Virus genome (UHGV): UHGV-0074814
Reading direction: 5' to 3' (one strand)
Source: a virus
DNA: 52,958 nucleotides
Shown one piece after another: positions 1,690 through 52,958 of the stretch. The translations under genes and the position numbers were made by a program. The notes below the pieces were generated by a model. It saw only the letters and a program-made list of their open reading frames with translations. It did no database searches and had not been told where the DNA came from. The number at the start of each line of letters is the position of its first letter. The stretch's first letter is position 1.

Positions 1690-3579
1690 ATGAAATCCGA
1701 AACGCTAACCATCCAGCAAATTTTCCAAAATCAACGACAATATCGTGTTCCATTCTATCAACGTGCCTACGTATGGACGCAACGAAACCAATGGTCAGCT
1801 TTGTTGGAGGATATCTTCGAAAAAGCACAGAGCCGACTTTCGGGAACAAAACCAACCCCTCATTTCCTCGGCGCGGTGGTGCTGGAACCTCAACTCAAAA
1901 ACAGCTTGTTAGGTGTAGATACCATACATATTATTGACGGCCAGCAACGTTTAACCACTCTTCAATATATTCTGGCATCCATTCGATTATCATTGCGTGC
2001 TACAGGCCTTTCTGAACTGGAAGGGTTAGTATTGACTTGCTTGAAAAATACAAACGAAGCAACGATGAGAAATAAAAAGGTAGAATGCTTCAAACTGTGG
2101 CCAACTTTTCGAGATCAAACTCATTTTATTCAAAGTCTTAATGTTGATAATATTGACGATCTCCGTAATGTATTTTCTGATAGCTTCACGCAACATGGTA
2201 CGTTACGTAAACATTTCAACCACCCGCCGTCACTAGAGGCATTATGGTTTTTTACTGAAGCCTTTATAAAATGGATTAAAATAGAAAACCACTCACCACA
2301 AGAAAATGCTGTAGCACTAATTGAGGCTGTCTTGACGGATCTGAAACTGGTAAGCATATTTCTCGAAGCTGAAGATGATGCCCAAATAATTTTTGAAACA
2401 TTAAATGGGCGAGGAGCGGAACTTCATGCAACGGATCTTATTCGCAACTATATCTTTATGTGCGCTGAGCATGAAAATATTAATGCTATTGAATTATATG
2501 AAAATGAGTGGAAGATCTTTGAAGATAAATACTGGTCGGAAAAGCAACGCCGTGGACGTATTAATAAACCACGCATGGAGTGGCTTGTACATGCGACATT
2601 GCAATCAGAAAGGCAGCGTGAAATTGATCTGTCTCGCCTTTACAATGAGTATCGTGATTATGTAAGTAAGGACTTGCCTTCACAACGAGCAGATCTGCAA
2701 GTAAAGCGCCTCAAACAATATGCATCACAATATAAAGAATTGGTTGGTGGTTTTGGCACAACCCCCATCTCACACTTTGGACATCGCATCGCAGCCTATG
2801 ATGTGACGACACTCTATCCGCTTGCTTTGTTCATTTCGATAGCTAACATCGCCGATGATGAGAAAGCAGCCATGTATAATGATCTTGTCTCCTACGTAGT
2901 ACGAAGATCCGTATGTGGCCTGACGCCAAAGAATTACAACAATGTATTTATGAATGTATTGCGACACTTGTCTAAAACGGAAATTTCCAGTGTTGAGTTA
3001 CGTAATATCCTCAATAGCTTAAATGGCGAAGCCTCACGTTGGCCTGGGGACTCAGAATTTCTCAACGCTTGCATCAATGCTCCACTTTATCCTGGCAGGC
3101 TCGACGCACCGAAAATGCGCTCAATGTTAACGGAACTTGAAAGAGAACTTTGTCGCCAAGTGAAGACAGAAAAGCCTGATGTTCCAAATCTTTCTAATCT
3201 CGATATCGATCATCTTATGCCTCAAAGTTGGTATTCCTGTTGGCCTCTCGAAAATGGTCATATGGTGACAAATTCAGATGCTACGGTAATGAACCAAATT
3301 GTTCTGTCTGGAACCGATCTTACCCCTGAACAGCTACTGGTAAGGAAACGGCAACAAGCGATAGCTACGTTGGGAAATCTAACTTTGCTTAACCTTAGCG
3401 TAAACCGTTCCGTTCAGAATGCTGTATTTCTGAAAAAACGTGATGCTCTCATCGTCCACACCAATCTACGACTGAACATACCACTTATACTTAAGGATAA
3501 ATGGGATGAGAGTGAAATACAGGAGCGAGGTAAAAAGTTGGGGGAAATTGCATTGAAAGTATGGCCAAAATACGATTAA
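1690..3579 (+). CDS. DUF262/DUF1524 family protein, GmrSD-like type IV (modification-dependent) restriction endonuclease candidate
   Basis: N-terminal FYQRAYVW and IIDGQQRLTT (DUF262/ParB-like DGQQR motif); C-terminal DIDHLMPQS His-Me/HNH-like motif (DUF1524); SD AGGTAA 5 nt before ATG. Confidence 0.6.
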   Translation: MKSETLTIQQIFQNQRQYRVPFYQRAYVWTQRNQWSALLEDIFEKAQSRLSGTKPTPHFLGAVVLEPQLKNSLLGVDTIHIIDGQQRLTTLQYILASIRLSLRATGLSELEGLVLTCLKNTNEATMRNKKVECFKLWPTFRDQTHFIQSLNVDNIDDLRNVFSDSFTQHGTLRKHFNHPPSLEALWFFTEAFIKWIKIENHSPQENAVALIEAVLTDLKLVSIFLEAEDDAQIIFETLNGRGAELHATDLIRNYIFMCAEHENINAIELYENEWKIFEDKYWSEKQRRGRINKPRMEWLVHATLQSERQREIDLSRLYNEYRDYVSKDLPSQRADLQVKRLKQYASQYKELVGGFGTTPISHFGHRIAAYDVTTLYPLALFISIANIADDEKAAMYNDLVSYVVRRSVCGLTPKNYNNVFMNVLRHLSKTEISSVELRNILNSLNGEASRWPGDSEFLNACINAPLYPGRLDAPKMRSMLTELERELCRQVKTEKPDVPNLSNLDIDHLMPQSWYSCWPLENGHMVTNSDATVMNQIVLSGTDLTPEQLLVRKRQQAIATLGNLTLLNLSVNRSVQNAVFLKKRDALIVHTNLRLNIPLILKDKWDESEIQERGKKLGEIALKVWPKYD

Positions 3580-3601
3580 TGCAATTAATAAAATGATTAT
3601 A

Positions 3602-3625
3602 GCGGCCTTACATTAGTAAGGCCGC
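3602..3625. terminator. hairpin between convergent DUF262 gene and pin remnant (possible bidirectional terminator)
   Basis: Perfect 10-bp stem gcggccttac/gtaaggccgc with 4-nt loop; A/T-rich flanks. Confidence 0.4.
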
Positions 3626-3804
3626 AACTCACTATTAAATCCTTTAATTTGCATCAAGAACAGCACTGTCAGCCCTAGGCTCTCGGACTTTGTACCGCTT
3701 ATCTTGTCTTCAAAAATCAGCTCGCATCCTGCACAGTTCAACGCATTACGTTGTAGATCGATTTTCTGGTCATTTGTTGATACGCAAACATAGCCAATAA
3801 GCAT
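3613..3804 (-). pseudogene. truncated serine invertase (Pin/Gin/Hin family), N-terminal ~45 residues conserved then divergent
   Basis: MLIGYVCVSTNDQKIDLQRNAL matches invertase catalytic N-terminus (Ser in VSTNDQ); ORF only 64 aa versus ~185-190 aa; SD GAGGGAG before ATG at 3804. Confidence 0.65.
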
Positions 3805-37824: not shown

Positions 37825-38085
37825 ATGAGGTTATCAAAAATGCTTCAAATGCTGACACTTGAGGAATGGGCTGCGGAAAAATTTAGGAGTAATCCTCCAA
37901 GTGTGTCCACATTGCGTCGTTATGCTAAGCAGAATTTATTTTGTCCACCAGCAATGAAACAAGGTCGACTCTGGCGAGTACGTGAGGACGCAGAGTTAGT
38001 TGGGGAATTAGTTACTCCAGTAATCAAGAAAAGTGATTCTATTATTCTGCAAAGGATTTTAAGCAATGGCAGCCAGACCACGTAA
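37825..38085 (+). CDS. excisionase (lambda Xis-like); start may be one of two downstream ATGs
   Basis: MLTLEEW...STLRRYAKQNLFCPP resembles lambda Xis; overlaps integrase start. Confidence 0.6.
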   Translation: MRLSKMLQMLTLEEWAAEKFRSNPPSVSTLRRYAKQNLFCPPAMKQGRLWRVREDAELVGELVTPVIKKSDSIILQRILSNGSQTT

Positions 38086-39193
38086 AAATAATGTTTCAGT
38101 ACCTAACTTGTATCCGCTTTATAGTAGAAAAGTAAATAAAGTCTATTGGCGATATAAGCATCCAGTGACCGGGAAATTTCATTCGTTGGGCACAAATGAA
38201 GCTGAAGCTATTGCTATTGCCACTGAAGCTAACACTCGTCTGGCTGAGCAAAGAACCCGGCAGATTCTAGCTATCAGTGATAGGATCGCAACCAGCAAAG
38301 GAAAAGCGATCACAACGTCAACCTGGTTAGATCGCTATCAAGCGATCCAGGATGACAGGCTCAAAAGTGGTGATATAAGACTCAACACCTATAAGCAAAA
38401 AGCTAAACCAGTATCCTTGCTCAGAGAACGAGCAGGAATGAAGTTGATCTCATCCGTTGATGTTAGAGATATAGCACAATTGCTTGATGAGTATATTGCA
38501 GCTGGACAGCCTAGAATGGCCCAAGTCGTTAGGTCTGTATTGATCGATGTGTTTAAGGAAGCACAGCATTATGGCGAAGTTCCGCCAGGGTATAACCCTG
38601 CTCTTGCGACGAAGCAACCCAAAAGAAAAATTACCCGTCAACGCCTCAGCCTGGAAGAATGGCAAAAAATATTCGATATAGCAGACGCCAGTCATCGTTA
38701 CATGGGAAATGCCATGCTCCTAGCTTTGGTCACTGGGCAGCGTTTGGGAGATATATCCAAAATGAAATTTAGTGATATTTGGGAAGATCATCTTCACGTC
38801 ATTCAGGAAAAGACTGGAAGCAAAATCGCTATCCCTCTTTCTCTTCGCCTCAATGCGATTAACTGGAGTTTACGCGATGTAATAGCCCGCTGCCGTGACT
38901 ATGCAGTCAGCCCATACCTAGTGCATTTTTTCCGTTCAACTTCACAAGCAGAACGTGGGGCACAGGTTAAATCCAATACATTGACGATGAACTTTAGTAA
39001 AGCGAGAGATTTAGCAGGAATTGACTGGGGTGATGGCTCACCCGCAACATTCCATGAACAAAGATCGTTATCTGAACGCCTGTACAAGGAGCAAGGGATA
39101 GATACCAGAAAGCTACTTGGGCATAAAACACAACAACAAACCGATCGTTACCATGATGACCGAGGGAAAGGTTGGAGCAAAGTAGCTTTGTGA
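38066..39193 (+). CDS. tyrosine integrase (lambda Int family, e14 IntE-like)
   Basis: 375 aa; C-terminal catalytic region with R...HxxR...Y (HKTQQQTDRYHDD); adjacent to Xis and att-side icd repeat. Confidence 0.85.
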   Translation: MAARPRKNNVSVPNLYPLYSRKVNKVYWRYKHPVTGKFHSLGTNEAEAIAIATEANTRLAEQRTRQILAISDRIATSKGKAITTSTWLDRYQAIQDDRLKSGDIRLNTYKQKAKPVSLLRERAGMKLISSVDVRDIAQLLDEYIAAGQPRMAQVVRSVLIDVFKEAQHYGEVPPGYNPALATKQPKRKITRQRLSLEEWQKIFDIADASHRYMGNAMLLALVTGQRLGDISKMKFSDIWEDHLHVIQEKTGSKIAIPLSLRLNAINWSLRDVIARCRDYAVSPYLVHFFRSTSQAERGAQVKSNTLTMNFSKARDLAGIDWGDGSPATFHEQRSLSERLYKEQGIDTRKLLGHKTQQQTDRYHDDRGKGWSKVAL

Positions 39194-39403
39194 GCGTTTA
39201 AGTTTCTCAATCCCACATTAATTATCTCATCACACATGTAACAGGCCAAACAGACTGCTCTGAGCGACGAACCGTTGTTGACCAGTAACGCCATAGAGTA
39301 TATTCAGTAAGTGTTCCAATGTATATAAGAAATGCGCTGTGTATATTTTTAATTCAAAATAGTTTGAAGCACAATCATGAAACAGATTCTTATGAATACA
39401 AAA

Positions 39404-40519
39404 TTAAATTAAATCAAATAGCCCATGTTCATCTATAGCCTTTGAACTAATTAAGTTCGCGGCTTCTATGTCATTGTCACTTGCCTCAGAAATAAGGAAA
39501 AATGAATCAACATGATTTTGCAAAATAATTTCCTTATACTTCTTGAGCCATTGTAATTTACCTGTAGTGAACAATACTTTACGCGGTAGCAAAATACGGC
39601 TAAAAACTGATGGAAGATACTCACTTCTATTAAATGGAATAAAAGGGTCGCCTAAAGAAAGAATAGTTAGACGATTAAATTCACCGTGCGAATTCAATTT
39701 TTCAGCTGATTTGGCTATACCACTTGGTAAAAAAACACCTGTCTTGATACCGTTGCGTAAAGCAACAACAGCCATCATTTTATCAAAGGCAGTACCTCCA
39801 AATAATAAGGAATATCCTTTTTTAACAGAAAGATCAATAGTATCAAGAACAACTTGTTTTTCTATATCACTTGGTGACGTGCTCGAAATTATCGAAAGAT
39901 CAAAATCAGTAAATAACTGCCCAGTATAATAAAGATTTTTGCCGGTGAAAGTTGACAACTTTAAAGGAAACATTTTATCATCATGCTTAATTTCAGATAC
40001 ATTAAGATCTGTTAAGGATGGATAGTTAAAGTTTGGTGAGGCTTTTCCGTGTTTATTATTTTTTGATGCCTGCGGACTAAAAACTAGAATTTCATTTTTA
40101 TTATTACACAGGTAATCCTGTATCATTTTTTTTACAATATCCCAATCAAGACCACCGTGACCACAACCTAAAGCTGGCAGGGTGATTGTTTTTCCATGTT
40201 TATTATCCAAATATTTCGAGAGCCAATGCAGTCCTTTTTCGATATATTCGTACTTAGACTTATTTCTCCAATGATCCTTGGTGGGAAAGTTTATGATTTC
40301 TATTTCCTTACCATACGTATCATTACCTTTCCAAACAGCTGGTCTTCCTGGAGATATTTCTCCTTTTTTACACAGCAATACGTATTCATTATACATTTCA
40401 GGAAACTTATTCTTAAAAGCAAAAGCAACCCCTGCCCCCATTACACCAACACAATTAACTGTATTAATTCTAATGTCAGCAGCATAATCGAAAAAATCAC
40501 CATCAACATATCTAATCAT
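39404..40519 (-). CDS. macro-domain protein (DarG/TARG1-like) with C-terminal Rossmann-like domain; candidate antitoxin
   Basis: GDFFDYAADIRINTVNCVGVMGAGVAFAFKNKFPEMY and ALGCGHGGLDW macro motifs; start set at ATG with SD AAGGAGG (ORF track extends to 40645); AT-rich. Confidence 0.55.
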   Translation of the reverse strand: MIRYVDGDFFDYAADIRINTVNCVGVMGAGVAFAFKNKFPEMYNEYVLLCKKGEISPGRPAVWKGNDTYGKEIEIINFPTKDHWRNKSKYEYIEKGLHWLSKYLDNKHGKTITLPALGCGHGGLDWDIVKKMIQDYLCNNKNEILVFSPQASKNNKHGKASPNFNYPSLTDLNVSEIKHDDKMFPLKLSTFTGKNLYYTGQLFTDFDLSIISSTSPSDIEKQVVLDTIDLSVKKGYSLLFGGTAFDKMMAVVALRNGIKTGVFLPSGIAKSAEKLNSHGEFNRLTILSLGDPFIPFNRSEYLPSVFSRILLPRKVLFTTGKLQWLKKYKEIILQNHVDSFFLISEASDNDIEAANLISSKAIDEHGLFDLI

Positions 40520-40991
40520 AAAACCTCCTTTGGTCAGAGTATACATCCTTATTTCTGGCTCTTCAATTCTATTGTCAAAAACTTTTACAAAGTCTGCATC
40601 AGTAAAACTGATGGCGCATTTTAAAATTAAAATCAATATGTCCATATCAAACGTTATATTTGTTATTTTTTGTATTTATTATTCATATCCATCATGTGCT
40701 ATTAAATCGCCCAAAAGAACATAATAAATTATGTGCACCACTTTCTTCTTATTGAATTTTGGATTACATTACGATCTAAATTAGATCTTTTGCCAATATC
40801 ATAAACATATGCAGCAAACGTTGCAACAAGCTGTTCTCATTCTAACAGTTAGTAGAATATAAACTCTGTAATTAGCACACTGAATTCCCTTCATCTATGA
40901 GTTACAACATCCTTTAAGTGAATAGTATTGTTAGTTTAAATCTATTAATATCATTCATAAAACTATTTTATATAGTTAAAGTCATTATAAA

Positions 40992-41015
40992 TCCATCTGA
41001 ATATATACAGATGGA
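40992..41015. promoter_or_regulatory. perfect palindrome TCCATCTG-N8-CAGATGGA in intergenic spacer (candidate operator)
   Basis: 8-bp inverted arms with 8-bp AT spacer, read directly. Confidence 0.3.
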
Positions 41016-41226
41016 TTCTGCCAATAGTCTTTGCAGGTGAAGTGCATGTTATATATTTTTTAGGGAATATATTTTCTAATTATTTCTCAGATAAAAATTT
41101 GCAGAACGAAATTACTTTACATAATACCGAATGTTACAGATTATTTTATTGCATATAAGCATTGAACTAACCACTATCACAGTGACTATGTTAATCATAA
41201 AATCTGCATCAAATTCAAAAAGCTCC

Positions 41227-42573
41227 TCATAAACTGTTCCCCTGCAATCTTTGGAGAACTTCATCCCGGAGATCATCGATCCCGTCAGAAACCTGAGCTA
41301 ACCAAACTTGACTTAATGAGCCAATATCAGCCTTACTTAGGGCTACTAACATATTGATATCTTCAGAAGATGTAACTATATCGAACAACTGATTTTTATT
41401 CCTCCCTTTAGCTACTATTTCCCCCAATAAATCATCATACGTAACTAACATCATTATTTTTCTAACTAGATCGGTTTGTATGACTGGCAGATCTTCTGTC
41501 AAAATTCGTTGTAGCATCGCAAGTGACTTCCTAGGATGCTCTCCATCTGCCTCATGCATGTAATTATTATTCCAACGTGTTTTAGGCCCTTTGCCTATAT
41601 CATGCAAATAAGCGGCCAACTCCAAAACTTCCTGATGAATAGAGTCTAATTGATAAAACTCTGGTGAATTAACTACAAGACTAGCCACTCGTCGACTATG
41701 AGAGCCAACATCTTCATTATGAGGCCCGTAGCTCGTCCCCAATCCATCGATATCTTCAAGCTCTTGGATGGAGGAGAAATTACCACGAATTGCACTTAGA
41801 GCATCACTAATACTTTGAAATTTTGGCCTCGTTTCTCGTTGAAATGAAGTTACATATTCAATAGCTTCATCAAAAAGCATTTTTAACACTACCGGTCCCG
41901 TGACTAAGGATGAGGACCAGTTTCCAGGTTGATAATAATAATGTTGAAAATCACCCTCAACAATATTTGGTGGAACAATACCTTTGTTCTGGAAAATACT
42001 CCTCACAATATCAGACATAGAACGATTCCATGTAATTATCTGATTTATTTCGCTTAAAGAGACATGATCTGGCAGCAAAAGTTCTGCCATCTTTTTATGC
42101 CTCTGAGTCTCGTCAGCATAACCCCATGCATTATTATCTATGGTAGCCCAATCTAATACATCAAGCTGGTCAGCTTGAGTATTACCAGAATAAAAGTTCG
42201 GTGGATTAACTGTATTTGCGGAAGCATCTGTAAAATATGACCCATTCCTTGTTTCGAGTGATAATATAGAAACTGAAAGATAGATAATAAATTGCTGATC
42301 TACATTTTTTTTATGAAGAACAGACAATTGCATGGGCGTTTTTTTTGCAAAATAAAAAGGAACATAATCATGAACACAACGACCATTCGTATTAGGCACC
42401 TGCATCACTGCCCTACGCCCCTGTATTCCTTCATCAGCAACATTCACATGTGATATACGACGTGCAATTTTCTGATTAGTCGAAAACAGCCCAGTTTCAA
42501 TTATTGATTCAAGATTATCTACTGACGTAAAGTGATATGCATTTCGGTGTCTATGGTGAACAGGAACTGTCAT
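41227..42573 (-). CDS. DarT-like (DUF4433) ADP-ribosyltransferase domain fused to HD phosphohydrolase domain; candidate toxin
   Basis: N-terminal YHFTSVDNLESIIETGL, HDYVPFYF and YFTDASA resemble DarT; C-terminal HSRRVASLVV...LAAYLHDIGK is an HD motif; SD GGGGGA; AT-rich. Confidence 0.5.
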   Translation of the reverse strand: MTVPVHHRHRNAYHFTSVDNLESIIETGLFSTNQKIARRISHVNVADEGIQGRRAVMQVPNTNGRCVHDYVPFYFAKKTPMQLSVLHKKNVDQQFIIYLSVSILSLETRNGSYFTDASANTVNPPNFYSGNTQADQLDVLDWATIDNNAWGYADETQRHKKMAELLLPDHVSLSEINQIITWNRSMSDIVRSIFQNKGIVPPNIVEGDFQHYYYQPGNWSSSLVTGPVVLKMLFDEAIEYVTSFQRETRPKFQSISDALSAIRGNFSSIQELEDIDGLGTSYGPHNEDVGSHSRRVASLVVNSPEFYQLDSIHQEVLELAAYLHDIGKGPKTRWNNNYMHEADGEHPRKSLAMLQRILTEDLPVIQTDLVRKIMMLVTYDDLLGEIVAKGRNKNQLFDIVTSSEDINMLVALSKADIGSLSQVWLAQVSDGIDDLRDEVLQRLQGNSL

Positions 42574-42928
42574 GTATCCCCCATGAAAAACTATAAAAAT
42601 TTAGGTAGTGTGCTTTATATTATTACAGTAATTGTAAATTACCGATATAGGATATCAACCTTCCTGTGATCTAGGTCACTCAGGATGAGCAACTTCCTAT
42701 TGATTAGGATTCAAAATGTTTGAAATGTGCGCTTACAGAACCACAGGCCACTTTGAGCGAAGAACAGACCTAAATATAAACGAGGGTTAATCAGCAATAA
42801 TTATAATAAACTGAGGTATGCCTAATTGGAACTTGACAATATAACTACCATCTCTCCCTAAACAACTAGGAGTTTTGATAACTTATTTTGATAAAATTTT
42901 GATAACCGTTAGCAGACTAACAAAAAAC

Positions 42929-42951
42929 AACGGGAGCGTTACACTCCCGTT
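42929..42951 (-). terminator. rho-independent terminator hairpin downstream of icd 3' copy 2
   Basis: Stem aacgggag/ctcccgtt, 7-nt loop; on minus strand followed by GTTTTTTGTT. Confidence 0.45.
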
Positions 42952-42974
42952 AATAGATTTAACAAATCACGATA

Positions 42975-43139
42975 TTACATATTCTTGATGATCGCATCAC
43001 CAAATTCTGAACATTTCAGCAGTTTAGCACCTTCCATCAGACGTTCGAAGTCATAGGTTACGGTCTTCGCGTTGATTGCGCCTTCCATACCTTTAACAAT
43101 CAGGTCTGCGGCTTCAGTCCAACCCATATGGCGCAGCAG
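42975..43139 (-). pseudogene. icd: icd 3'-terminal fragment (copy 2, attL-side)
   Basis: Translation [54 protein letters not shown]-stop; ~9 mismatches vs copy 1 over 165 bp. Confidence 0.8.
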
Positions 43140-43598
43140 TATATAAAAATTATGTATTCAACTCGCTGATATTTAATCATAAATATTATTTTCTTGTCTT
43201 TGTATTAGCCAAAATCAACTTTATTCAACCGTTTGATTTCATTGACGTTCGTTTTTATTTTGGGGAAAGATTTTCTCTACCATTTATATCAAAATTACAA
43301 GTCTACATTTTATTAACATCTCAATACATGTGTGGCCTTGCAAGCCATTGCGAGGCCTTATGTGTCTCAGTTTTGTCCCGCCTTGTATTACGACTTGCAT
43401 AGCCAATGAAGATAAACGTGACGACAAACAAAGCAGCTGTCTTCTTTTCTTTCACACTTTCCCCACTCAGCAGCATGCATACCTTCTACTATAACTGTAG
43501 TGAATGTCTATTATGAGCGAACTGCGGACATCGTGGAGACAACATGCTGCTGGGTGCGGATATCCCATGGCACGTCATATCGCTCGCCGTATTACTTG

Positions 43599-44369
43599 TT
43601 ATTTTTTTGAAACGAGAAGTTGATACAATTCCTTCAGGGATAAGGCTAATAACTCATTCTTCCTGATGAGATCTTTATCAGCGTCTATACCCTCTGCGCA
43701 TGATTCATTTAAATAGTTCAGTGTTTCCTGATCATCATCCAAGCATTCATAGCTGCCTGAATAAAATTCATCGCAACTTGCTTTGTTATTTTTGTCAATG
43801 TAACCAATGCATTGAATCACGCCTTTAACAACTTTAGCAGCAGAAAAAACAAAGTAACTGCAGTCATTTATATAGCGTTCAATATCAAAAATCATATAAA
43901 AATAGTGCATAGAGTGTTTTTCAATTTCAAACTCACTTGAAATCATAGCTATTTCACATTCAAGGTCTTTCAGACCATCTAACATTATGGAAAGTTTACA
44001 TTGTTTTTCTTGCACAGTTTCATACTTAAATGACTCTCTCCCCTTTGCCCTGACATTTATTCTTTCTTCAATTGCATAAATATAAGCAGGATATACACGC
44101 GACCACACTTGGTTTATTTTTAGGATTAACCGGCCTCTTTTCAGCCTTTCTTTTGTAGCTATAAATTCTGCATATAGCGCAGCATCCTCTTCGCACCATA
44201 CATCAACTTTTCGTTTATAACCCAACTTTAATTCTTTCCCTACGCATTCAGGAAACAAAGGATCAAAGTCCTTTAAGTATTCAAACTCACTTAGATAGAA
44301 TCCTGTCTCATAACGATTAAATAATTTCCTAAACTCTTTCCCACTTAAGGTTTTCATTGTATCAATCAC
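43599..44369 (-). CDS. hypothetical AT-rich cargo protein (256 aa)
   Basis: Clean ORF with strongly AT-biased codon usage; no motif recognised. Confidence 0.4.
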   Translation of the reverse strand: MIDTMKTLSGKEFRKLFNRYETGFYLSEFEYLKDFDPLFPECVGKELKLGYKRKVDVWCEEDAALYAEFIATKERLKRGRLILKINQVWSRVYPAYIYAIEERINVRAKGRESFKYETVQEKQCKLSIMLDGLKDLECEIAMISSEFEIEKHSMHYFYMIFDIERYINDCSYFVFSAAKVVKGVIQCIGYIDKNNKASCDEFYSGSYECLDDDQETLNYLNESCAEGIDADKDLIRKNELLALSLKELYQLLVSKK

Positions 44370-44963
44370 TCTGTTTTCATAAAAGCAAAGTCAACAAGAT
44401 AAAACAATAAAAACTCTTACACAACCAGCTGATGTTTTTAAAATAGAGGATAATATAAGACAAGCATAACCTCGTTCACTTCAATGCTACTCCTATCGTT
44501 CTTTTGCGTCACAGAGCGCCTGCCGGACAACTGCATCATAGACCAAACGGAACTGCTTCCGTCGATTAATCAGATGGCAGCGCATAAACACGCTCAACAA
44601 CCCGTTTGACTGCTTCAATTTTAAGCTCTTCGGAATAACGCTTACCGTGTAAGTCTCCCTGCAAAACGAGCTATCAACTTTTAAGGAGTCTCTGGCCCCC
44701 CTGCTTCCGCTCCTGGCACACAGCAGCCCTAGAGACAGTGGAGTAAAGTCATGGAGGCTCGGTGGGGGGAGGTGCAAATCCTCCCATACAAAAAATACGA
44801 AAATCAGTAACGGCTAGAAATCATTCAATACATGCACTCTCGAAATTGCATCAGCCAACCGCAAAACGTTATTTCAAAGCCTACTAGCTGCCTTACTTTT
44901 TTCCTCAATAACGCGTCGCCAGCAGGAAACAACCTAATCCCTGTTTTGGGCCTCAAAGCTGCT

Positions 44964-44982
44964 AATGATAATCATTTTCATT
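44964..44982 (+). promoter_or_regulatory. Fur box upstream of sitA
   Basis: AATGATAATCATTTTCATT matches Fur consensus GATAATGATAATCATTATC at about 15 of 19 positions. Confidence 0.5.
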
Positions 44983-45001
44983 TTGTATAGGCTGTGCTAT
45001 A

Positions 45002-45023
45002 AAACATAGCCGTTGCTATGTTT
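45002..45023 (+). promoter_or_regulatory. MntR operator palindrome upstream of sitA
   Basis: AAACATAGC-cgtt-GCTATGTTT perfect inverted repeat, the known MntR box pattern. Confidence 0.55.
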
Positions 45024-45055
45024 GTTCTAATTTTGCTCACTATAGGTACTAAATT

Positions 45056-45970
45056 ATGCACTCGATAAAAAAAGTAACCATGCTCTTGGGGGGGCTCGCA
45101 CTCACCTGCTCGATCGCATTTCAGGCAAGTGCAACTGAAAAATTCAAGGTCATTACAACATTTACCATCATCGCGGATATGGCCAAAAACGTGGCGGGAG
45201 ATGCTGCAGAAGTCTCATCCATAACCAAGCCTGGTGCAGAAATTCATGAGTATCAGCCTACCCCTGGCGATATTAAACGTGCGCAGGGGGCACAACTGAT
45301 TCTCGCCAATGGTATGAATCTGGAATTGTGGTTCCAACGCTTTTACCAGCATCTCAATGGGGTTCCAGAAGTAATTGTCTCTTCGGGTGTGACGCCTGTA
45401 GGGATCACCGAAGGACCCTATGAGGGCAAACCTAACCCCCATGCATGGATGTCGCCAGATAATGCTCTGATTTACGTCGATAATATTCGTGATGCGTTGA
45501 TAAAATACGATCCGGCAAATGCACAAACCTACCAACGCAATGCCGATACTTATAAAGCCAAGATTACCCAAACCCTTGCCCCCCTGCGTAAGCAGATTAC
45601 GGAACTCCCTGAGAATCAGCGATGGATGGTCACCAGTGAAGGGGCTTTTTCTTATCTCGCACGCGATTTGGGGCTAAAAGAGCTTTATCTGTGGCCGATT
45701 AATGCCGATCAACAAGGAACACCGCAGCAGGTACGTAAGGTTGTTGATATAGTTAAGAAAAATCATATCCCGGCAGTCTTTAGCGAGAGTACGATTTCCG
45801 ATAAACCAGCGCGTCAGGTTGCGCGTGAAACCGGCGCACACTACGGCGGTGTGCTCTATGTCGATTCCCTGAGCACAGAAAACGGCCCGGTACCGACGTA
45901 TATCGACCTTCTTAAGGTTACTACCAGTACGCTGGTACAGGGAATTAAAGCTGGGAAAAGGGAGAAATAA
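45056..45970 (+). CDS. sitA: Mn/Fe ABC transporter periplasmic binding protein SitA
   Basis: Signal peptide, 304 aa, first gene of four-gene ABC operon with Fur and MntR boxes. Confidence 0.8.
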
Positions 45971-46797
45971 TGATGCAATCTGCAGGCATTGTCGTTAATG
46001 ATGTTACTGTCACCTGGCGTAACGGGCACACAGCACTGCGCGATGCATCCTTCACAGTACCAAGTGGATCTATTGCCGCTCTGGTTGGGGTAAACGGTTC
46101 CGGAAAATCGACGTTGTTTAAAGCGATTATGGGATTTGTGCGTCTGACCAGCGGAAAGATATCTGTTCTGGGTATTCCCACGCGACAGGCGTTACAGAAA
46201 AACCTGGTTGCCTACGTCCCTCAGTCAGAAGATGTTGACTGGTCATTTCCTGTACTGGTGGAAGATGTGGTGATGATGGGCCGCTATGGGCATATGGGTA
46301 TGTTGCGTATCGCCAAAAAGAGGGATCGTCAAATTGTCACCGATGCGCTGGAACGTGTCGATATGGTGAATTTTCGCCATCGACAAATCGGCGAGCTTTC
46401 CGGTGGACAAAAGAAACGCGTCTTTCTGGCGAGAGCGATTGCACAGCAGGGTGATGTGATCCTGCTGGATGAACCTTTTACTGGCGTTGATGTGAAAACC
46501 GAAGCCAAAATCATCAGCCTGTTGAGGGAGTTACGCGCGGAAGGCAAAACGATGCTTGTCTCAACACACAATCTCGGATCCGTCACGACATTTTGCGATT
46601 ATACGGTCATGGTCAAAGGCACCGTCCTGGCAAGCGGGCCGACAGACACCACTTTTACAGCCGAGAACCTAGAGCTGGCTTTTAGCGGCGTACTGCGCCA
46701 TGTCACACTTAACGGCTCGGAAGAAAGCATTATTACTGACGATGAACGCCCTTTTGTGGCTCATCGACCGTCAGCGGTGCAGAGGGAAGAAAGATGA
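45970..46797 (+). CDS. sitB: Mn/Fe ABC transporter ATP-binding protein SitB
   Basis: Walker [10 protein letters not shown], signature LSGGQKKR, Walker B ILLDEP. Confidence 0.85.
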
Positions 46798-47651
46798 ACG
46801 TGCTACTGGAACCCTTCAGCTATGAATATATGCTCAATGCGATGTGGGTCTCGGCGATGGTCGGCGGTCTCTGCGCTTTCCTGTCATGCTATCTGATGCT
46901 AAAAGGCTGGTCGCTGATTGGCGATGCGTTGTCGCACTCTATTGTCCCGGGTGTTGCGGGGGCATATATGCTGGGGCTTCCGTTTTCTCTGGGAGCCTTC
47001 TTTTCCGGCGGACTGGCTGCGGGCAGCATGCTGTTTCTTAACCAACGCACCCGCTTAAAAGAAGATGCCATCATCGGTCTGATCTTCTCGTCCTTTTTTG
47101 GCCTGGGGCTGTTTATGGTGTCATTGAACCCGACATCTGTGAACATTCAGACCATCGTCCTGGGCAATATTCTGGCAATCGATCCGGCGGATATCCTGCA
47201 ACTCACTATCATTGGCATTCTCTCGATCATCGTGCTTTTTTTCAAATGGAAAGATCTTATGGTGACCTTTTTCGACGAGAATCACGCCCGTGCTATTGGA
47301 TTGCATCCGGGCAGATTAAAACTCCTCTTCTTCACCCTGCTGTCGGTTTCGACCGTTGCGGCGCTGCAAACGGTTGGTGCCTTTCTGGTGATCTGTCTGG
47401 TGGTGACTCCCGGTGCAACAGCATGGTTGTTAACCGATCGTTTTCCCCGCCTGCTCATGATTGCTGTAACTATTGGCAGTGTAACCAGTTTCCTCGGCGC
47501 GTGGGTCAGTTACTTTCTGGACGGCGCGACAGGTGGAATCATCGTGGTGGCGCAGACACTGCTGTTTCTTTTAGCATTTGTCTTTGCGCCCACCCATGGG
47601 CTTTTGGCAAATCGTCGGCGTGCGCATAAGGCGCTGGAGGATCGCTCATGA
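46794..47651 (+). CDS. sitC: Mn/Fe ABC transporter permease SitC
   Basis: 285 aa polytopic membrane protein, overlapping starts in operon. Confidence 0.8.
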
Positions 47652-48505
47652 TGGCATTATTACTGGAGCCACTGCAGTTCACCTTTATGAGTCACGCACT
47701 GCTGATTTCACTGGTAGTTTCCATACCCTGTGCGCTGCTGTCGGTCTTTCTGGTCCTGAAAGGTTGGGCACTGATGGGTGACGCGATGAGTCATGCGGTT
47801 TTTCCTGGCATCGTGCTTGCCTGGATTCTGGGGTTACCTTTGGCTACAGGGGCATTCGTCGCCGGAGTATTCTGCGCGGTGGCGACGGGATACCTGAAAG
47901 ACAACAGCCGAATCAAGCAAGATACAGTGATGGGGATTGTTTTTTCTGGCATGTTTGCCGCAGGTCTGATCTTGTATATTGCAGTCAAACCAGACGTACA
48001 TCTTGACCATATTCTTTTCGGCGACATGCTCGGGATAACCATCGGCGATATAATCCAGACGATGATTATTGCCGGGCTGGTTACACTTGTTATTAGCGTA
48101 AAATGGCGGGATTTTTTGCTGTTCAGCTTTGATTATCAACAGGCGCAGGTAAGCGGTTTGCATACGAGATGGCTGCATTATGGGCTGCTGTGCATGGTCT
48201 CTCTGACCATTGTGGCGACGCTGAAAGCGGTAGGTATCATTCTCTCCATTTCTCTGCTCATTGCGCCTGGCGCCATTGCGGTACTCCTGACACAACGCTT
48301 TCATATTGCGCTCCTACTGGCGACTGGCATATCGGTAATAGTGTCAATGACTGGTGTCTGGTTGTCCTTTTTTATCGACAGCGCACCAGCTCCGACGATT
48401 GTCGTCTTATTCGCGGTTTTGTTCATCATGACGTTTGCCGTTACCAGCATCAACGCACGCAAAAAGGGAAACTCCCATACACAGGATCTGTTATCACCCA
48501 ATTAG
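47648..48505 (+). CDS. sitD: Mn/Fe ABC transporter permease SitD
   Basis: 285 aa polytopic membrane protein paralogous to SitC. Confidence 0.8.
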   Translation: MMALLLEPLQFTFMSHALLISLVVSIPCALLSVFLVLKGWALMGDAMSHAVFPGIVLAWILGLPLATGAFVAGVFCAVATGYLKDNSRIKQDTVMGIVFSGMFAAGLILYIAVKPDVHLDHILFGDMLGITIGDIIQTMIIAGLVTLVISVKWRDFLLFSFDYQQAQVSGLHTRWLHYGLLCMVSLTIVATLKAVGIILSISLLIAPGAIAVLLTQRFHIALLLATGISVIVSMTGVWLSFFIDSAPAPTIVVLFAVLFIMTFAVTSINARKKGNSHTQDLLSPN

Positions 48506-48596
48506 CACAACATCCGAGGACAGCAACACCCGATACTTTTTCCTGGCTTCCAGCAACGGGGTTTCTTCCTCCGTTGCATATACAGCTCACCTTTTT

Positions 48597-48890
48597 TCAC
48601 CCACGATTAACCAACAGCCAGACCAGCAGACACGCCACCACCGGCACAGCAAAATCCATCAGGCTTGCCACATCCCAAGCTCGCGGATCAAAACCGCCCC
48701 ACCACGGCATATTCATTCGCTTGCCATGCCCGAACATTTCAATCCAGCGATATTCTGCCTGGGTATGTTCACGCGCAATGAAGAACGTACAACCGGCTAT
48801 CGCTCCGTAAGCCCAGTTTCCGGTAAAAAGACCAACCAGTATCTGCGCAGCCACAGCACAAAGTGCATGAAGTAAGGGGCTTATATCCAT
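48597..48890 (-). CDS. hypothetical membrane protein
   Basis: 97 aa with two hydrophobic segments. Confidence 0.3.
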   Translation of the reverse strand: MDISPLLHALCAVAAQILVGLFTGNWAYGAIAGCTFFIAREHTQAEYRWIEMFGHGKRMNMPWWGGFDPRAWDVASLMDFAVPVVACLLVWLLVNRG

Positions 48891-48902
48891 TATTTCCTCC
48901 TT

Positions 48903-49181
48903 TCAGCTCCATTCCCGAAGCGGTGTTTCCAGCTCCACGACATAATCAGAGAATACAGAAACATCAAACAAGTCATCAAGAATGCGAATGTTGACAAAAT
49001 AACCATCATTCCGGATACAGACAGGTTCTCCCTCTTCTGTTACCCCTGTTTCTGTGTAGGTGAAACCAATTTCATCAACTAACAGTTTATTCTGGAGGTC
49101 TTCATCTTCCGCCCAGCCAAGAGATGACAGGAAGGCCTTAAACTGCAGTTTGTCATGAAACTTCAAAGTTAAATCTTTCAT
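48903..49181 (-). CDS. hypothetical protein translationally coupled to side tail fibre gene
   Basis: 92 aa; start overlaps Stf stop. Confidence 0.3.
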   Translation of the reverse strand: MKDLTLKFHDKLQFKAFLSSLGWAEDEDLQNKLLVDEIGFTYTETGVTEEGEPVCIRNDGYFVNIRILDDLFDVSVFSDYVVELETPLREWS

Positions 49182-51244
49182 ACGACCTCTTTTAATTGCC
49201 TGTCATTTAATTCTTTATGCCATATGCGGAAATTGCGAATATGGCCAAACAGATGTCGTTCTCCAGTATTCGTCTGCCCTCCAAATCGGATATTTTTATC
49301 AGCGGTCACGCCATTATATTCACAATAAACTTCATTAACCGCTTTACCATTTGTCACCACATGAAAGTGACCATCAGCTTTTGCAATACATCCAAATGTG
49401 GTTTTCTCTGCAAATACATCTGTCGCTGCGCTATTAACATACGAGCCTGAAGGGTTTGACAGACTCATATATAACTTACCACTACCTCTGTTGATTGCTG
49501 CAATTGCTGATTGCCCGGTATTGGCTGCTGCTATATCCCACACGCGGGGTGCGGCGTTTGGTGCAATATCCCAGTTTTTATGAATCTCAAGTAAAAAAGT
49601 AAATGGTAACTTATAAAGATTATTTCTGGTGGGGATACTAACCAAATCACTGGCTCTTGTCGTTGCGCTGCCTCCTGAAATAATAAATGATGATACACAC
49701 GGCCCATTCTCTACTTGTGGGGTGGCAAGATAAATATAGTCACCAGATACTGTTGCCCCACCCTGCCCAGGAGAATACTGTATCTGAGAGCCTATTTTTA
49801 ACTCACCATCAATTGCCTGAATCGTTGCCTCTGCAAAAATCCAGCCCGTGGTCTTATCCTTCCTGACTCGTGCCGTAATTCTGCCGGCAGCACCACCTGT
49901 CATACTAATTTCAAGCGTTTGCGTATCAATGTACGCATCGCCAAGAAAAGTTGTTGCACTACCATCATACTTATCAAACCGTATACGTAACCTTACCTGT
50001 CGTTCTGTTTTAAAACGGCATGAGGTTGTCACGTACTTGTTATCGCCTGAGACATCAACTGACTTTGTTGCAGCAATTGATGCCATATTAATAGCCGAAG
50101 TTTGCCCAACCAGAGAATCGTTGCAGACAAACTTTCCATAAGTAAAACCAAAACTATCCGTCCCGGTTTCGGGCACATCCATGTTTGATGACTTCCCCCA
50201 GCTGGCTGGACTTTCCGAATTGAGCATGTAGTTCGTTCTTTGTCCCTCAATAAGCAGGCCATCACACTCAAATCGCGGCTCATTAATTTCCGCCGTTTTC
50301 AGTTCGCCAGATTTGTTGATATATGTTGCCGTTGATGCGCGACTGAAATTAACCTGTTTATCACTGGCGACCTGAACCACATCGTCACCAATAGCTATTT
50401 TTTTATAGCCCGGAGAAAAACCCGCAATCATATCCAGTGAATCGTTAAACGGTATCCACACATCAGGCAGCGGCGGCACTATATTCGCACAGGGCTCTGC
50501 AGTCACTTCCGCTGCGGCTTCTGCGCGGTCTGCCGCCTTTTCAGCTCGTGTCGCTGCCGACAGAGCCTCATCCTTTTTCTGCCCGGCCTTTGTTGCGTCT
50601 GCTGCGGCCTCCCGCGCTTTTGTGGTGGCGACTCCGGCATTTTCAGCGGCTGACTCTGCATTACGGCGGGAAGCCTCTTCACTGTCTGCGGAGGCTTCTT
50701 CTGACGCACGGGCATTTGTCTCTGAACGTTCTGCCGCTGTTGCTGCGTTTTGTGCGGCTGTTTTTGAAGAAGCTGCCGCTTTCGCGCTGTTACCTGCATT
50801 CGTCTCTGATGTTTTCGCCGCGTTCCTGGACGATGCCGCTGCTGTTTCTGATTTCTTTGCTGCCGCTGCGCTCTGAGAGGCGGCTTCAGCGTTGCGTGCC
50901 GCCTCTTCCACCATCTTTTCAAAACGATACAGTGCCTCCGGACAAACATCATCTTCTGTTGCAGCGCCCAGAAAATCATTCAATGTCCCCGGCTTAGAAT
51001 CCTCATACACGGTGATGGTCCCGGCATGTGAAGGCGGAAAACCTTCAACCAGCAGGGCGACGCTGTACTGGCCATACTCAACATCCATGCTGTAACGTCC
51101 GGCTTCATCCGGATTTTCTGAGGCCACCGTGTTCACCACAACTGTGGTGCTGTTACGTTTTGCTTTGAGCTGAATGGTGCAGTTCTGTATCGGTTTTCCT
51201 GCACCGTCTTTCAGCACACCTGAAATCTGTACTGCCATATTCAC
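49178..51244 (-). CDS. side tail fibre protein (lambda Stf-like N-terminus, Ala-rich stalk, distinct C-terminal domain)
   Basis: N-terminus MAVQISGVLKDGAGKPIQNCTIQLKAKRNSTTVVVNTV...GRYSMDVEYGQYSV nearly identical to lambda Stf as recalled. Confidence 0.7.
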   Translation of the reverse strand: MNMAVQISGVLKDGAGKPIQNCTIQLKAKRNSTTVVVNTVASENPDEAGRYSMDVEYGQYSVALLVEGFPPSHAGTITVYEDSKPGTLNDFLGAATEDDVCPEALYRFEKMVEEAARNAEAASQSAAAAKKSETAAASSRNAAKTSETNAGNSAKAAASSKTAAQNAATAAERSETNARASEEASADSEEASRRNAESAAENAGVATTKAREAAADATKAGQKKDEALSAATRAEKAADRAEAAAEVTAEPCANIVPPLPDVWIPFNDSLDMIAGFSPGYKKIAIGDDVVQVASDKQVNFSRASTATYINKSGELKTAEINEPRFECDGLLIEGQRTNYMLNSESPASWGKSSNMDVPETGTDSFGFTYGKFVCNDSLVGQTSAINMASIAATKSVDVSGDNKYVTTSCRFKTERQVRLRIRFDKYDGSATTFLGDAYIDTQTLEISMTGGAAGRITARVRKDKTTGWIFAEATIQAIDGELKIGSQIQYSPGQGGATVSGDYIYLATPQVENGPCVSSFIISGGSATTRASDLVSIPTRNNLYKLPFTFLLEIHKNWDIAPNAAPRVWDIAAANTGQSAIAAINRGSGKLYMSLSNPSGSYVNSAATDVFAEKTTFGCIAKADGHFHVVTNGKAVNEVYCEYNGVTADKNIRFGGQTNTGERHLFGHIRNFRIWHKELNDRQLKEVV

Positions 51245-51296
51245 TCCACAAATAAAAAAGGCACCATTTCTGGTGCCCGAATTTGGGTTTTAAAAT

Positions 51297-52958
51297 TCAA
51301 CTGATACTGATGCCGGCTGTTGATTTCTTCATCACGACAACAAGAAGGTCGCTGATACTGGTCGTTGGCGTCCAGTTATTTGCACCATATGAAGAAACAT
51401 TGAAAGTCAGGGTGACATGGCCGTGTCCGGCAGGCATATCAATGACTGATGAAAATACCCTGCTGACATCCGTCGCGGGTTGCTGAAAGATTTCCTGTCC
51501 GTTCTTCAGCACCTGCAGCTTACAGGTTGAATACCAGTATGACTGTTGGTTGTTGCTGTTGAAGTTTTCATGCTTACCACCGCGAAACAGAACGGGGGGG
51601 ACGACTATCTGACGGTCAAAAGCCTGGTCATCGTACACAGTGACCGTTATTGTACCGCTGGCATAACTGCCATTTCTCGGAAAGGCTTTTCCCACCGTTT
51701 TGACAATATCACCTTCAATCTGGTTAGCTGACAGTTTTCCCAGAATCCGACAGTTCTGGTTAATCGTGACATTATTGAGCGTCCCGGAGTTCGCATTCAC
51801 GTTACCGCTGATATCCGCATTTCTCGCAGAAAGTCGACCATCAGGTGTCAGTGAAAACGTTGGGGGATTGCCACCGCTGGTAATGGTGGGAGCCGTCAGA
51901 TATTTCAGGAACACTTCGTTCATGAATATCTGATCGCCCTGACCAACAAACATCGGCTTTGTGTTGCCATTCGCAGGATTAACCATCGCAATCCTGTCCG
52001 CCGCCAGCAGCACCTGACTCTGCATGCCGTCAGGGGTGTTCTCAATACCGGCACCAATACCCGCGATATAAAGGCGTCCGTCCTGCATCTGCTGCAGCTT
52101 CACAGCCCACATGCTGTTCAGGTTATTATTTGTATCAACCTGAACCTTCTGTATCTGCTGAATTGCCGCACTCTGGTCTTCCAGTTTCTTATTGACGGTC
52201 TGCGTGATTTCATTGCTGACATCCGTAATGGACGTCCTGATTTCAGCCAGGTCAGGCGCAAGCTGACCGTTATCAATCTGCGTCCACAGCTCCTGAGCCA
52301 GATGGCTTTTCCCTATCTCGCCTTTGAAAAAATCCAGATAGCCGGATGCATCATCACTCGGCTGGCCAACAGCCTCCACAAATGCCGATTTGCCAACGGT
52401 GTTCACACTGCGAATGTAAAAATAATAATCATGGCCCGGTTTGATATTGATACTGGCGGCTATCCAGTACAGCGCCGTACCAAGATAACGCGCGCTGGCT
52501 TCAACCTGCCTGATATCCGCAATCCGCTTTTCCGAGAACCAGAACTCAAACTGTACCGTCGGATCATAAACGGCAAGATGCGGCGTTGCGGTTATCTGAA
52601 AATAGCCCGGCGTCAGCTCAATCCTCGACGGTGCTGCCGGTGCGGCAATCCGGAACGATACCGACGCCGGATCGCCCTGCTGCCCCCACGCATTTACCGC
52701 CCGGACTGTCAGCCTGTAGTTCCCCAGCGCCAGTTGCCTGAAGCGGTATGTGGTTTCCGTCGTCCGGGCCGTGCTGACCAGCCGCTCACTGCCGTCATCC
52801 GCTGTTACGGTCAGACGGAGCAGGAAGCTCACGCCCTTCACCACCTTCGGCGTGTCCCAGCGCGCCAGCACCTGATATTCCCCGCTGTCTGCGGTGACTT
52901 CGGCGGTCAGGTGCTGCACCGCTGGCGGCGTGACACCATTCACCGTGCCGCTCTGGTC
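51297..52958 (-). CDS. tail tip host-specificity protein J-like, C-terminal part (5' end lies beyond window)
   Basis: Open reading frame continues to window edge; position immediately upstream of Stf. Confidence 0.6.

Follow-up and report, generated by a model that had tools for sequence, protein, structure and literature searches.

Probable remains of two toxin–antitoxin pairs in the long spacer of a DarT-HD/macro locus

Intact toxin and antitoxin genes next to icd

The window (the whole stretch of 52,958 nt of UHGV virus genome UHGV-0074814 that was analysed) carries a toxin–antitoxin (TA) locus at one end of an e14-like prophage, adjoining a 3' fragment of icd. The gene order is xis/int (intE 38066-39193, plus strand), a macro gene (39404-40519, minus strand), a gap of 707 nt, a DarT+HD gene (41227-42573, minus strand) and the icd 3' end at 42975. 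The intact genes and the ribosome binding site of the antitoxin are:

39404..40519, minus strand: macro (DarG-like) antitoxin gene of lineage A, 371 aa, intact (Pfam Macro, 3e-17)
40524..40530, minus strand: Shine-Dalgarno sequence AAGGAGG of the macro gene, 4 nt before ATG 40519
41227..42573, minus strand: DarT-HD toxin gene of lineage B, 448 aa, intact, with an N-terminal DarT ADP-ribosyltransferase and a C-terminal HD domain

The toxin matches both DarT (PF14487, DUF4433, 5e-40) and HD (2.8e-6) in Pfam, is found as DarT by PADLOC (1e-42) and aligns with the DarT structure 7omv of the PDB (5e-13), whereby the glutamic acid in ...KKMAELLL... falls on the position that is mutated to alanine in the crystallised protein. 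We take this glutamic acid to be the catalytic residue. The antitoxin is found as DarG by PADLOC (5e-58) and shows similarity to the DarG macrodomains 5m31 and 5m3i (1e-30 to 1e-31). Pfam detects only the macro domain and no DNA-binding domain in the 371-aa protein, the C-terminal 200 aa of which could hide a cryptic fold. Thus, the locus resembles the DarTG toxin–antitoxin and anti-phage systems of the macrodomain type (DarTG2): the toxin gene comes first and encodes a DarT ADP-ribosyltransferase (PF14487), the product of the second gene is DarG-like with a macrodomain at its N-terminus, and such pairs travel as cargo of prophages and plasmids. It differs from DarTG in the C-terminal HD domain of its 448-aa DarT and, as described below, in the combination of two genes that do not natively belong together and, instead of overlapping, lie 707 nt of wreckage apart. 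DarT proteins with a C-terminal HD phosphohydrolase form a widespread subfamily (958 proteins at E ≤ 1e-20, Gammaproteobacteria and beyond), and a description of such fusions was not found in the DarTG literature searched.

The stop codon TGA of DarT-HD is located at 41229-41227 (minus strand) and the macro gene most likely starts with ATG 40519-40517, which gives the gap of 707 nt (40520-41226). An unusually long and AT-rich spacer of about 700 bp was indeed what the original prediction had described, since intact relatives of both lineages overlap by 1–4 nt and the GC content of the spacer is only 28.1%, compared to 33.7% and 38.2% for the two flanking genes and 48.2% for the whole window. 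The strong Shine-Dalgarno (SD) sequence claimed for the macro gene is also present (40530-40524), and its purine-rich core is preserved in all hybrid and intact lineage-A loci. The claimed absence of ORFs of at least 60 aa from the spacer does not hold strictly, as a 64-aa ORF with a TTG start lies on the plus strand (40530-40724, called mechanical). Megablast against complete E. coli genomes found the region in seven copies with 100% identity, which are uninformative on conservation, and a blastn search of the locus against a phage collection gave no match.

Homology and divergence of the spacer

Relatives that share no more than 79% identity with toxin B (Vibrio, Nitrosomonas, Idiomarina, Aeromonas, E. 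coli and metagenomes) possess an overlapping macro partner of 376–383 aa, which begins with M(I/V)EFVSGDFFEFDADIM(V/I)NTVNCVGV. Using intact partners from Vibrio, Nitrosomonas, Idiomarina, Aeromonas and a metagenome genome as tblastn queries, we found the following feature directly behind the toxin gene:

40991..41226, minus strand: predicted pseudogene fragment, first ~94 codons of a lineage-B macro (DarG-like) gene

It begins at an ATGA overlap with the toxin stop codon, and macro-B residues 8-26 (DFFEFDADIMVNTVNCVGV) match ELFEFDADFMINIVTVIVV at 41225-41169, directly past this stop. After a frameshift, residues 64-94 (..NFPTKDHWKNPSEYYYID) match ..MHFTCKDYWQNPSVYIQMD within 41083-40991, with MHFTCKDYWQNPSVYIQMD itself at 41047-40991, and downstream of ELFEFDADFMINIVTVIVV the spacer also reads ..KDYWQNPSVYIQMD. 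The middle part (41168-41084) shows weak similarity to intact genes and was assigned by colinearity and by the better-preserved copy of a metagenome locus (L012), in which macro-B residues 8-94 align in one frame (E 4e-7). The fragment contains a frameshift, a stop and small deletions and resembles lineage B more than it does the macro gene of the window. By this homology, 41226-40991 is the 5' stump of the native macro gene of toxin B.

The remaining part of the spacer shows a different relationship. In the megablast search against complete E. coli genomes three further loci matched query positions 2 to 323-332 (window 40401 to ~40722-40731) at 78%, and the annotations "DarT" and "macro" both fall under the matched stretch. 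In E. coli LR-28 (L001, P2-like prophage) and on a Klebsiella plasmid (L003) darT-HD (444 aa) and the macro gene overlap by 4 nt, and the encoded DarT-HD is only 42% identical to the intact toxin of the window, yet matches its spacer from 40520 to 40953. This DarT-HD belongs to lineage A, which is 42% identical to lineage B, and the macro protein of the window shows 84–85% amino acid identity to the macros of intact lineage-A pairs but 43–49% to lineage-B macros. Blastn and tblastn thus define a second fragment:

40520..40992, minus strand: predicted pseudogene fragment, last ~180 codons of a lineage-A DarT-HD gene (HD half, residues ~259-444)

The blastn match to intact darT-HD-A genes is unbroken from the macro gene to 40731 (83%) and continues from 40774 to 40953 (71%). 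In tblastn, DarT-HD-A residues 371-438 correspond to 40741-40538 and residues 278-326, including the HD motif AAYLHDIGK, to 40935-40789, and the homology begins with I-Y-N-D-F, matching A-I-S-N-N-F (40992 onward). This fragment has at least five in-frame stops, a frameshift and a deletion of ~84 nt. A gapped match of the palindrome region described below to DarT-HD-A residues 233-261 (E 0.001) was rejected, as the ungapped macro-B match FP.KD.W.NPS.Y..D and the nucleotide comparison are better, and the DarT-HD-A assignment was accepted only from residue ~259 onward. From these matches we read ~40992-40520 as the decayed 3' half of a lineage-A toxin gene that was natively paired with the present macro gene. 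Taken together, the two predicted stumps account for the entire 707 nt, and the gap between toxin and antitoxin is, on this comparison with the overlapping relatives, secondary.

The pseudogene tail also touches the annotation of the antitoxin. The macro reading frame is open upstream as far as ATG 40645 within the spacer, and RefSeq lists a macro gene of 413 aa starting there (additional part: window 40520-40645, minus strand). The additional 42 codons derive from the end of the DarT-HD-A pseudogene; a 1-nt insertion, which none but the E. coli copy has, brings them into the macro frame. As all macro homologues start with MIR(Y/F), corresponding to ATG 40519, the RefSeq annotation is probably a start-site error.

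The same hybrid of toxin B, long spacer and macro A is found in further loci with spacers of 613–717 nt:

Citrobacter sp. Cu233 (L004): spacer of 717 nt
Metagenome contigs at icd (L012-14): spacer of 704 nt
C. freundii (L010), with a different integrase: spacer of 692 nt
Pectobacterium (L011), beside T4SS genes: spacer of 613 nt

For alignment and rates we used five loci, namely the window, Cu233, L012, L010 and L011. Both flanking genes are under purifying selection in these five hybrid lineages, with dN/dS values of 0.14–0.30 for DarT-HD-B and 0.09–0.16 for macro-A (0.09–0.30 overall). The spacer alignment contains many indels, and the spacer identity is about that of the 4-fold sites of the flanking genes; its Jukes–Cantor (JC) distances (0.16; 0.44–0.59) compare to dS values of 0.13–0.19 and 0.37–1.03, respectively, for the flanking genes, with narrower ranges of 0.52–0.54 for JC and 0.51–0.91 for dS also given for the second group, and its GC content of 28.1% to their GC3 of 25–29%. 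Since the divergence equals the synonymous rate of the flanking genes and the GC content equals their GC3, the spacer as a whole is by these measures evolving neutrally. Cronobacter contigs with an 81%-identical toxin end ~100–220 nt past the gene and are uninformative on the spacer. In Citrobacter sp. Cu233 a C>T exchange (L004 5330-5332) leads to a stop five codons early in the toxin (443 vs 448 aa), so the extreme C-terminus of the toxin would be dispensable.

With colinear similarity to intact homologues, stops, frameshifts and indels as disabling lesions, a synonymous-like rate and a GC3-level composition, the spacer resembles bacterial pseudogene relics as found in defence islands and prophage cargo slots. 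It differs from them as here two stumps of two different genes are fused and as the relic sits within a working operon, where a deletion touching the toxin stop or the promoter and SD of the antitoxin cannot remove it. Furthermore, it has survived to a dS of ~0.5–0.9 in several genera, which is long-lived for bacteria. This longevity might hint at some weak constraint, although the indel pattern and the rates argue against it.

The original prediction had also considered a small RNA or a micro-ORF, and a long non-coding region within a TA locus could encode a small RNA (e.g. an RNA antitoxin) or a conserved micro-protein, especially as an ORF of 37–65 aa starting inside the toxin 3' end recurs in four of the five loci. 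This ORF, however, is the decayed macro-B frame with a conserved start that is toxin coding sequence in another frame, its length and C-terminus vary at every locus and it is missing in L010. None of the small ORFs of at least 30 aa on both strands of the five spacers is conserved in extent. A search with Rfam 15 over 39000-43500 (E ≤ 1) gave no match inside the spacer (40520-41226), tandem or direct repeats of the kind found in type III antitoxins are absent, and a general repeat search of the spacer revealed, the palindrome apart, short two-copy matches only. Together with the neutral substitution and the frequent indels this makes a functional RNA or micro-protein extremely unlikely, so neither of these two suggestions found support.

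A palindrome at the junction of the two fragments

The palindrome TCCATCTG-aatatata-CAGATGGA lies exactly at 40992-41015, where it had been described, and can be extended:

40990..41017, no strand: perfect 10-N8-10 palindrome AATCCATCTG-N8-CAGATGGATT, extending the 8-N8-8 repeat

Taken without a loop, 13 of 14 positions per arm are complementary. When the spacer was shuffled 2000 times with its dinucleotides preserved, 33% of the shuffled sequences contained a perfect inverted repeat with a loop of at most 12 nt and arms of at least 8 nt, and 3% one with arms of at least 10 nt. The palindrome as first described, with 8-nt arms, is thus not beyond chance, and the whole window contains 22 such inverted repeats with arms of at least 8 nt and three with arms of at least 10 nt. 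The left arm AATCCATCTG corresponds to the macro-B codons AA(A/C) CCA TCT G.. (N/K-P-S-E), which are conserved in intact genes, and the right arm ends on the B/A junction (~40990-40993). The macro-B similarity stops at ..ATG GAT (40993-40991) and the DarT-HD-A similarity begins with ATT TAT AAT GAC TTT vs ATT AGC AAT AAC TTT, which places the palindrome on the joint.

Many type II TA operons are autoregulated via palindromic operators. The palindrome might accordingly be an operator that is bound by the antitoxin or a phage repressor and controls an autoregulated macro promoter within the spacer, as an inverted repeat within a TA locus is what both have in common, and the perfect 10-N8-10 form with its low frequency in shuffles and its full conservation in Citrobacter Cu233 would fit such a role. 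The original prediction had named in advance a lack of conservation of the palindrome in homologous loci as a refuting observation, and this is what the alignment of the five loci shows: besides the window only Cu233 has the palindrome unchanged, L012 has one mismatch (G>A), and in L010 and L011 it can no longer be recognised, even though both genes are under purifying selection. The identity with Cu233 means little, since by our own estimate one identical run of 40 nt is expected by chance at ~14% divergence. In contrast to type II operators the palindrome is not located at a promoter but ~470 nt upstream of the ATG inside pseudogene sequence at the fragment junction, conserved macro coding sequence accounts for its left arm, and the antitoxin has no DNA-binding domain detectable by Pfam. 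Promoter-like sites from a consensus scan are not enriched in the spacer (8 vs 7.5 expected) and none of them overlaps the palindrome on the sense strand. The operator reading is therefore largely refuted by the non-conservation, and we regard it as very unlikely.

The sequence also folds in silico as a 10-bp hairpin (81-nt context, −20.5 kcal/mol, z −3.8). A stable stem on the sense RNA ~210 nt downstream of the toxin stop could be an RNA element specific to the E. coli/Citrobacter lineage, for example a partial terminator, an RNase barrier or an mRNA stabiliser tuning the toxin:antitoxin transcript ratio, and an uncoupling of the transcripts would be useful if a downstream promoter feeds the antitoxin. 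But the hairpin is followed by UAUAAUGACUUUAAC without a U-tract, a consensus scan for intrinsic terminators on the minus strand (40300-41500) was empty, the stem is AT-rich with G-C pairs in only 4 of 10 positions, and three of the five hybrid lineages have lost it but keep both genes. We thus find this function improbable. From its position on the joint and its loss in other loci, we instead interpret the palindrome as a by-product of the collapse of two gene pairs, decaying in the sister lineages.

Candidate antitoxin promoter and proposed origin of the mixed pair

Only one part of the spacer deviates from neutral divergence. The sliding-window conservation has its peak at 40584-40525, with a pairwise identity of 0.78–0.85 compared to ~0.6 elsewhere in the spacer, and by this comparison it is the only constrained patch. 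It contains

40538..40566, minus strand: candidate sigma-70 promoter for the macro gene, TTGAAG (40566-40561) - 17 nt - TATACT (40543-40538), scan match 9/12

The two longest invariant runs of the five-locus spacer alignment, in which 33% of the columns are invariant, are AATTGAAGA (40568-40560) and ATGTATACT (40546-40538). The hexamers do not vary in any of their 12 columns, in contrast to 8 of the 17 columns between them, indels are absent, and no other 6-N17-6 frame in the spacer has all 12 hexamer columns invariant and is free of indels. Intact lineage-A toxin genes (L001, L003, L022 and L023) carry these hexamers at their 3' ends as well, and in L024, with a 74% identical macro protein, the −10 element is TATAAT and the rest of the 29-nt block is identical. 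This conservation suggests that TTGAAG-17-TATACT is probably an internal sigma-70 promoter for the antitoxin. The candidate −10 element lies ~8 nt before the SD sequence, which would give a very short leader, and the conserved patch could instead serve translation initiation. The original idea of an independent antitoxin promoter in the spacer is thus probable with respect to a candidate in front of the macro gene, which is located ~450 nt away from the palindrome, and nothing suggests its autoregulation. A precedent is the toxin-first system rnlAB, where a promoter internal to the toxin gene drives the antitoxin (PMC5535158). Both systems have the antitoxin downstream and a promoter-like element in the 3' part of the (former) toxin gene, but here the candidate is located ~20 nt from the ATG compared to ~280 nt in rnlAB and is deduced from conservation, and the protein families are unrelated.

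Taken together we propose, with a probability of about 0.85, that the spacer consists of two fused decayed gene stumps from the collapse of two DarT/macro pairs into one mixed pair and is a relic and not a regulatory device. As ancestor we infer two related DarT-HD/macro (DarTG2-like) modules arranged head to tail in the order toxin B, antitoxin B, toxin A and antitoxin A. A single deletion of roughly at least 1.6 kb from macro-B codon ~95 to darT-HD-A codon ~259, with its joint within 40990-40993 presumably at a microhomology of 2–3 nt, would have left toxin B, the antitoxin-B stump fused to the toxin-A stump, and antitoxin A. The remaining 0.6–0.7 kb of wreckage would then have drifted neutrally, accumulating stops, frameshifts and indels, and its AT-richness would follow from this drift, with the GC content relaxing to the GC3 of the module. 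The hybrid module would since have moved among an e14-like prophage at icd, an island with another integrase and a T4SS-bearing element. In the present arrangement the macro antitoxin would be expressed from its own strong SD sequence and its transcription would most likely be dual, by read-through from the toxin promoter, as the spacer has no detected terminator on the minus strand, and from the small TTGAAG-17-TATACT promoter, which would have been located in the toxin-A 3' end already before the collapse.

The same anatomy could also have originated from illegitimate recombination between two mobile elements carrying pair B and pair A, respectively. Lineage-A and lineage-B pairs each occur alone on different elements (P2-like prophage, IncF/IncR plasmid, IS-flanked islands), and a B-A tandem with both pairs intact was not found among the loci retrieved. 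On the other hand tandem DarT-HD modules do exist, and a single deletion is simpler and keeps the cell protected throughout, so we see the recombination route as the doubtful one of the two, albeit as one with some weight. Such a tandem array is present in Pectobacterium sp. CHL-2024 (L011 1876-4000), where a third divergent DarT-HD (1876-3219; 46–49% identical to A and B) is located upstream of the hybrid and is directly followed by a macro pseudogene with several stops (3222-3674). L011 is thus a three-module array with a single intact antitoxin, showing that tandem arrays with decaying surplus macro genes exist. Regarding the vehicles of the modules, the one in E. coli LR-28 (L001) is located between tail genes of its P2-like prophage, the one on Klebsiella plasmid p4-KP21300 (L003; IncFIA/IncFII/IncR) beside IS903B, the one in L010 on an integrase island beside hipBA and HNH genes and the one in L018 at an IS-flanked chromosomal site.

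A deletion in a tandem array would be survivable only if macro-A detoxifies DarT-B. On either route of origin, toxin B has stayed intact beside macro-A alone, which implies that macro-A cross-neutralises DarT-HD-B. DarG has been reported to neutralise DarT by enzymatic de-ADP-ribosylation and via its C-terminal domain (PMC11481870), and cross-neutralisation fits this enzymatic mode. Because antitoxins of the DarG type act enzymatically by removing ADP-ribose from DNA, a detoxification of DarT-B by macro-A is plausible. Neither tandem arrays of DarTG nor cross-neutralisation by DarG were found described in the literature searches. More generally, it is about an even bet that DarT-HD/macro modules accrete in tandem and collapse to "several toxins, one antitoxin" or to swapped pairs, that an enzymatic macro protein serves non-cognate toxins with ~42% identity and that the relic is retained for the private promoter of the antitoxin.

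A long AT-rich gap with a neat palindrome in a TA locus looked regulatory and would, on the reading preferred here, turn out to be neutrally evolving gene wreckage. A non-cognate DarT-HD/macro pair under purifying selection in several genera implies that the macro antitoxin tolerates toxin swapping, which bears on the evolution of phage anti-DarT macro proteins and on the specificity of host DarG. Owing to the conserved promoter-like element in the toxin 3' end, the antitoxin of this toxin-first family may be expressed independently. If the tandem collapse is true, the locus would amount to an experiment of nature on how promiscuous an antitoxin can be and how toxins are exchanged in a defence system, and the hybrid would be stable enough to spread over Escherichia, Citrobacter and Pectobacterium on three kinds of mobile elements.

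Some observations concern the surroundings of the locus. In the intergenic region between icd and DarT-HD a sub-threshold Rfam match to the Hfq-binding sRNA STnc150 is located at 42869-42955 (plus strand; 25 bits compared to a gathering score of 60, E 0.017). The icd 3' fragment (42975-43127, minus strand) is not followed by the remainder of icd but by an AT-rich 256-aa ORF (43599-44369, minus strand), four plus-strand ORFs (45056-48505), which judged by the look of their sequence resemble a sitABCD-type ABC metal transporter, and lambdoid tail-fibre genes (49178-52943, minus strand). This layout of the window from 42975 to 52958 suggests tandem elements at the icd attachment site.
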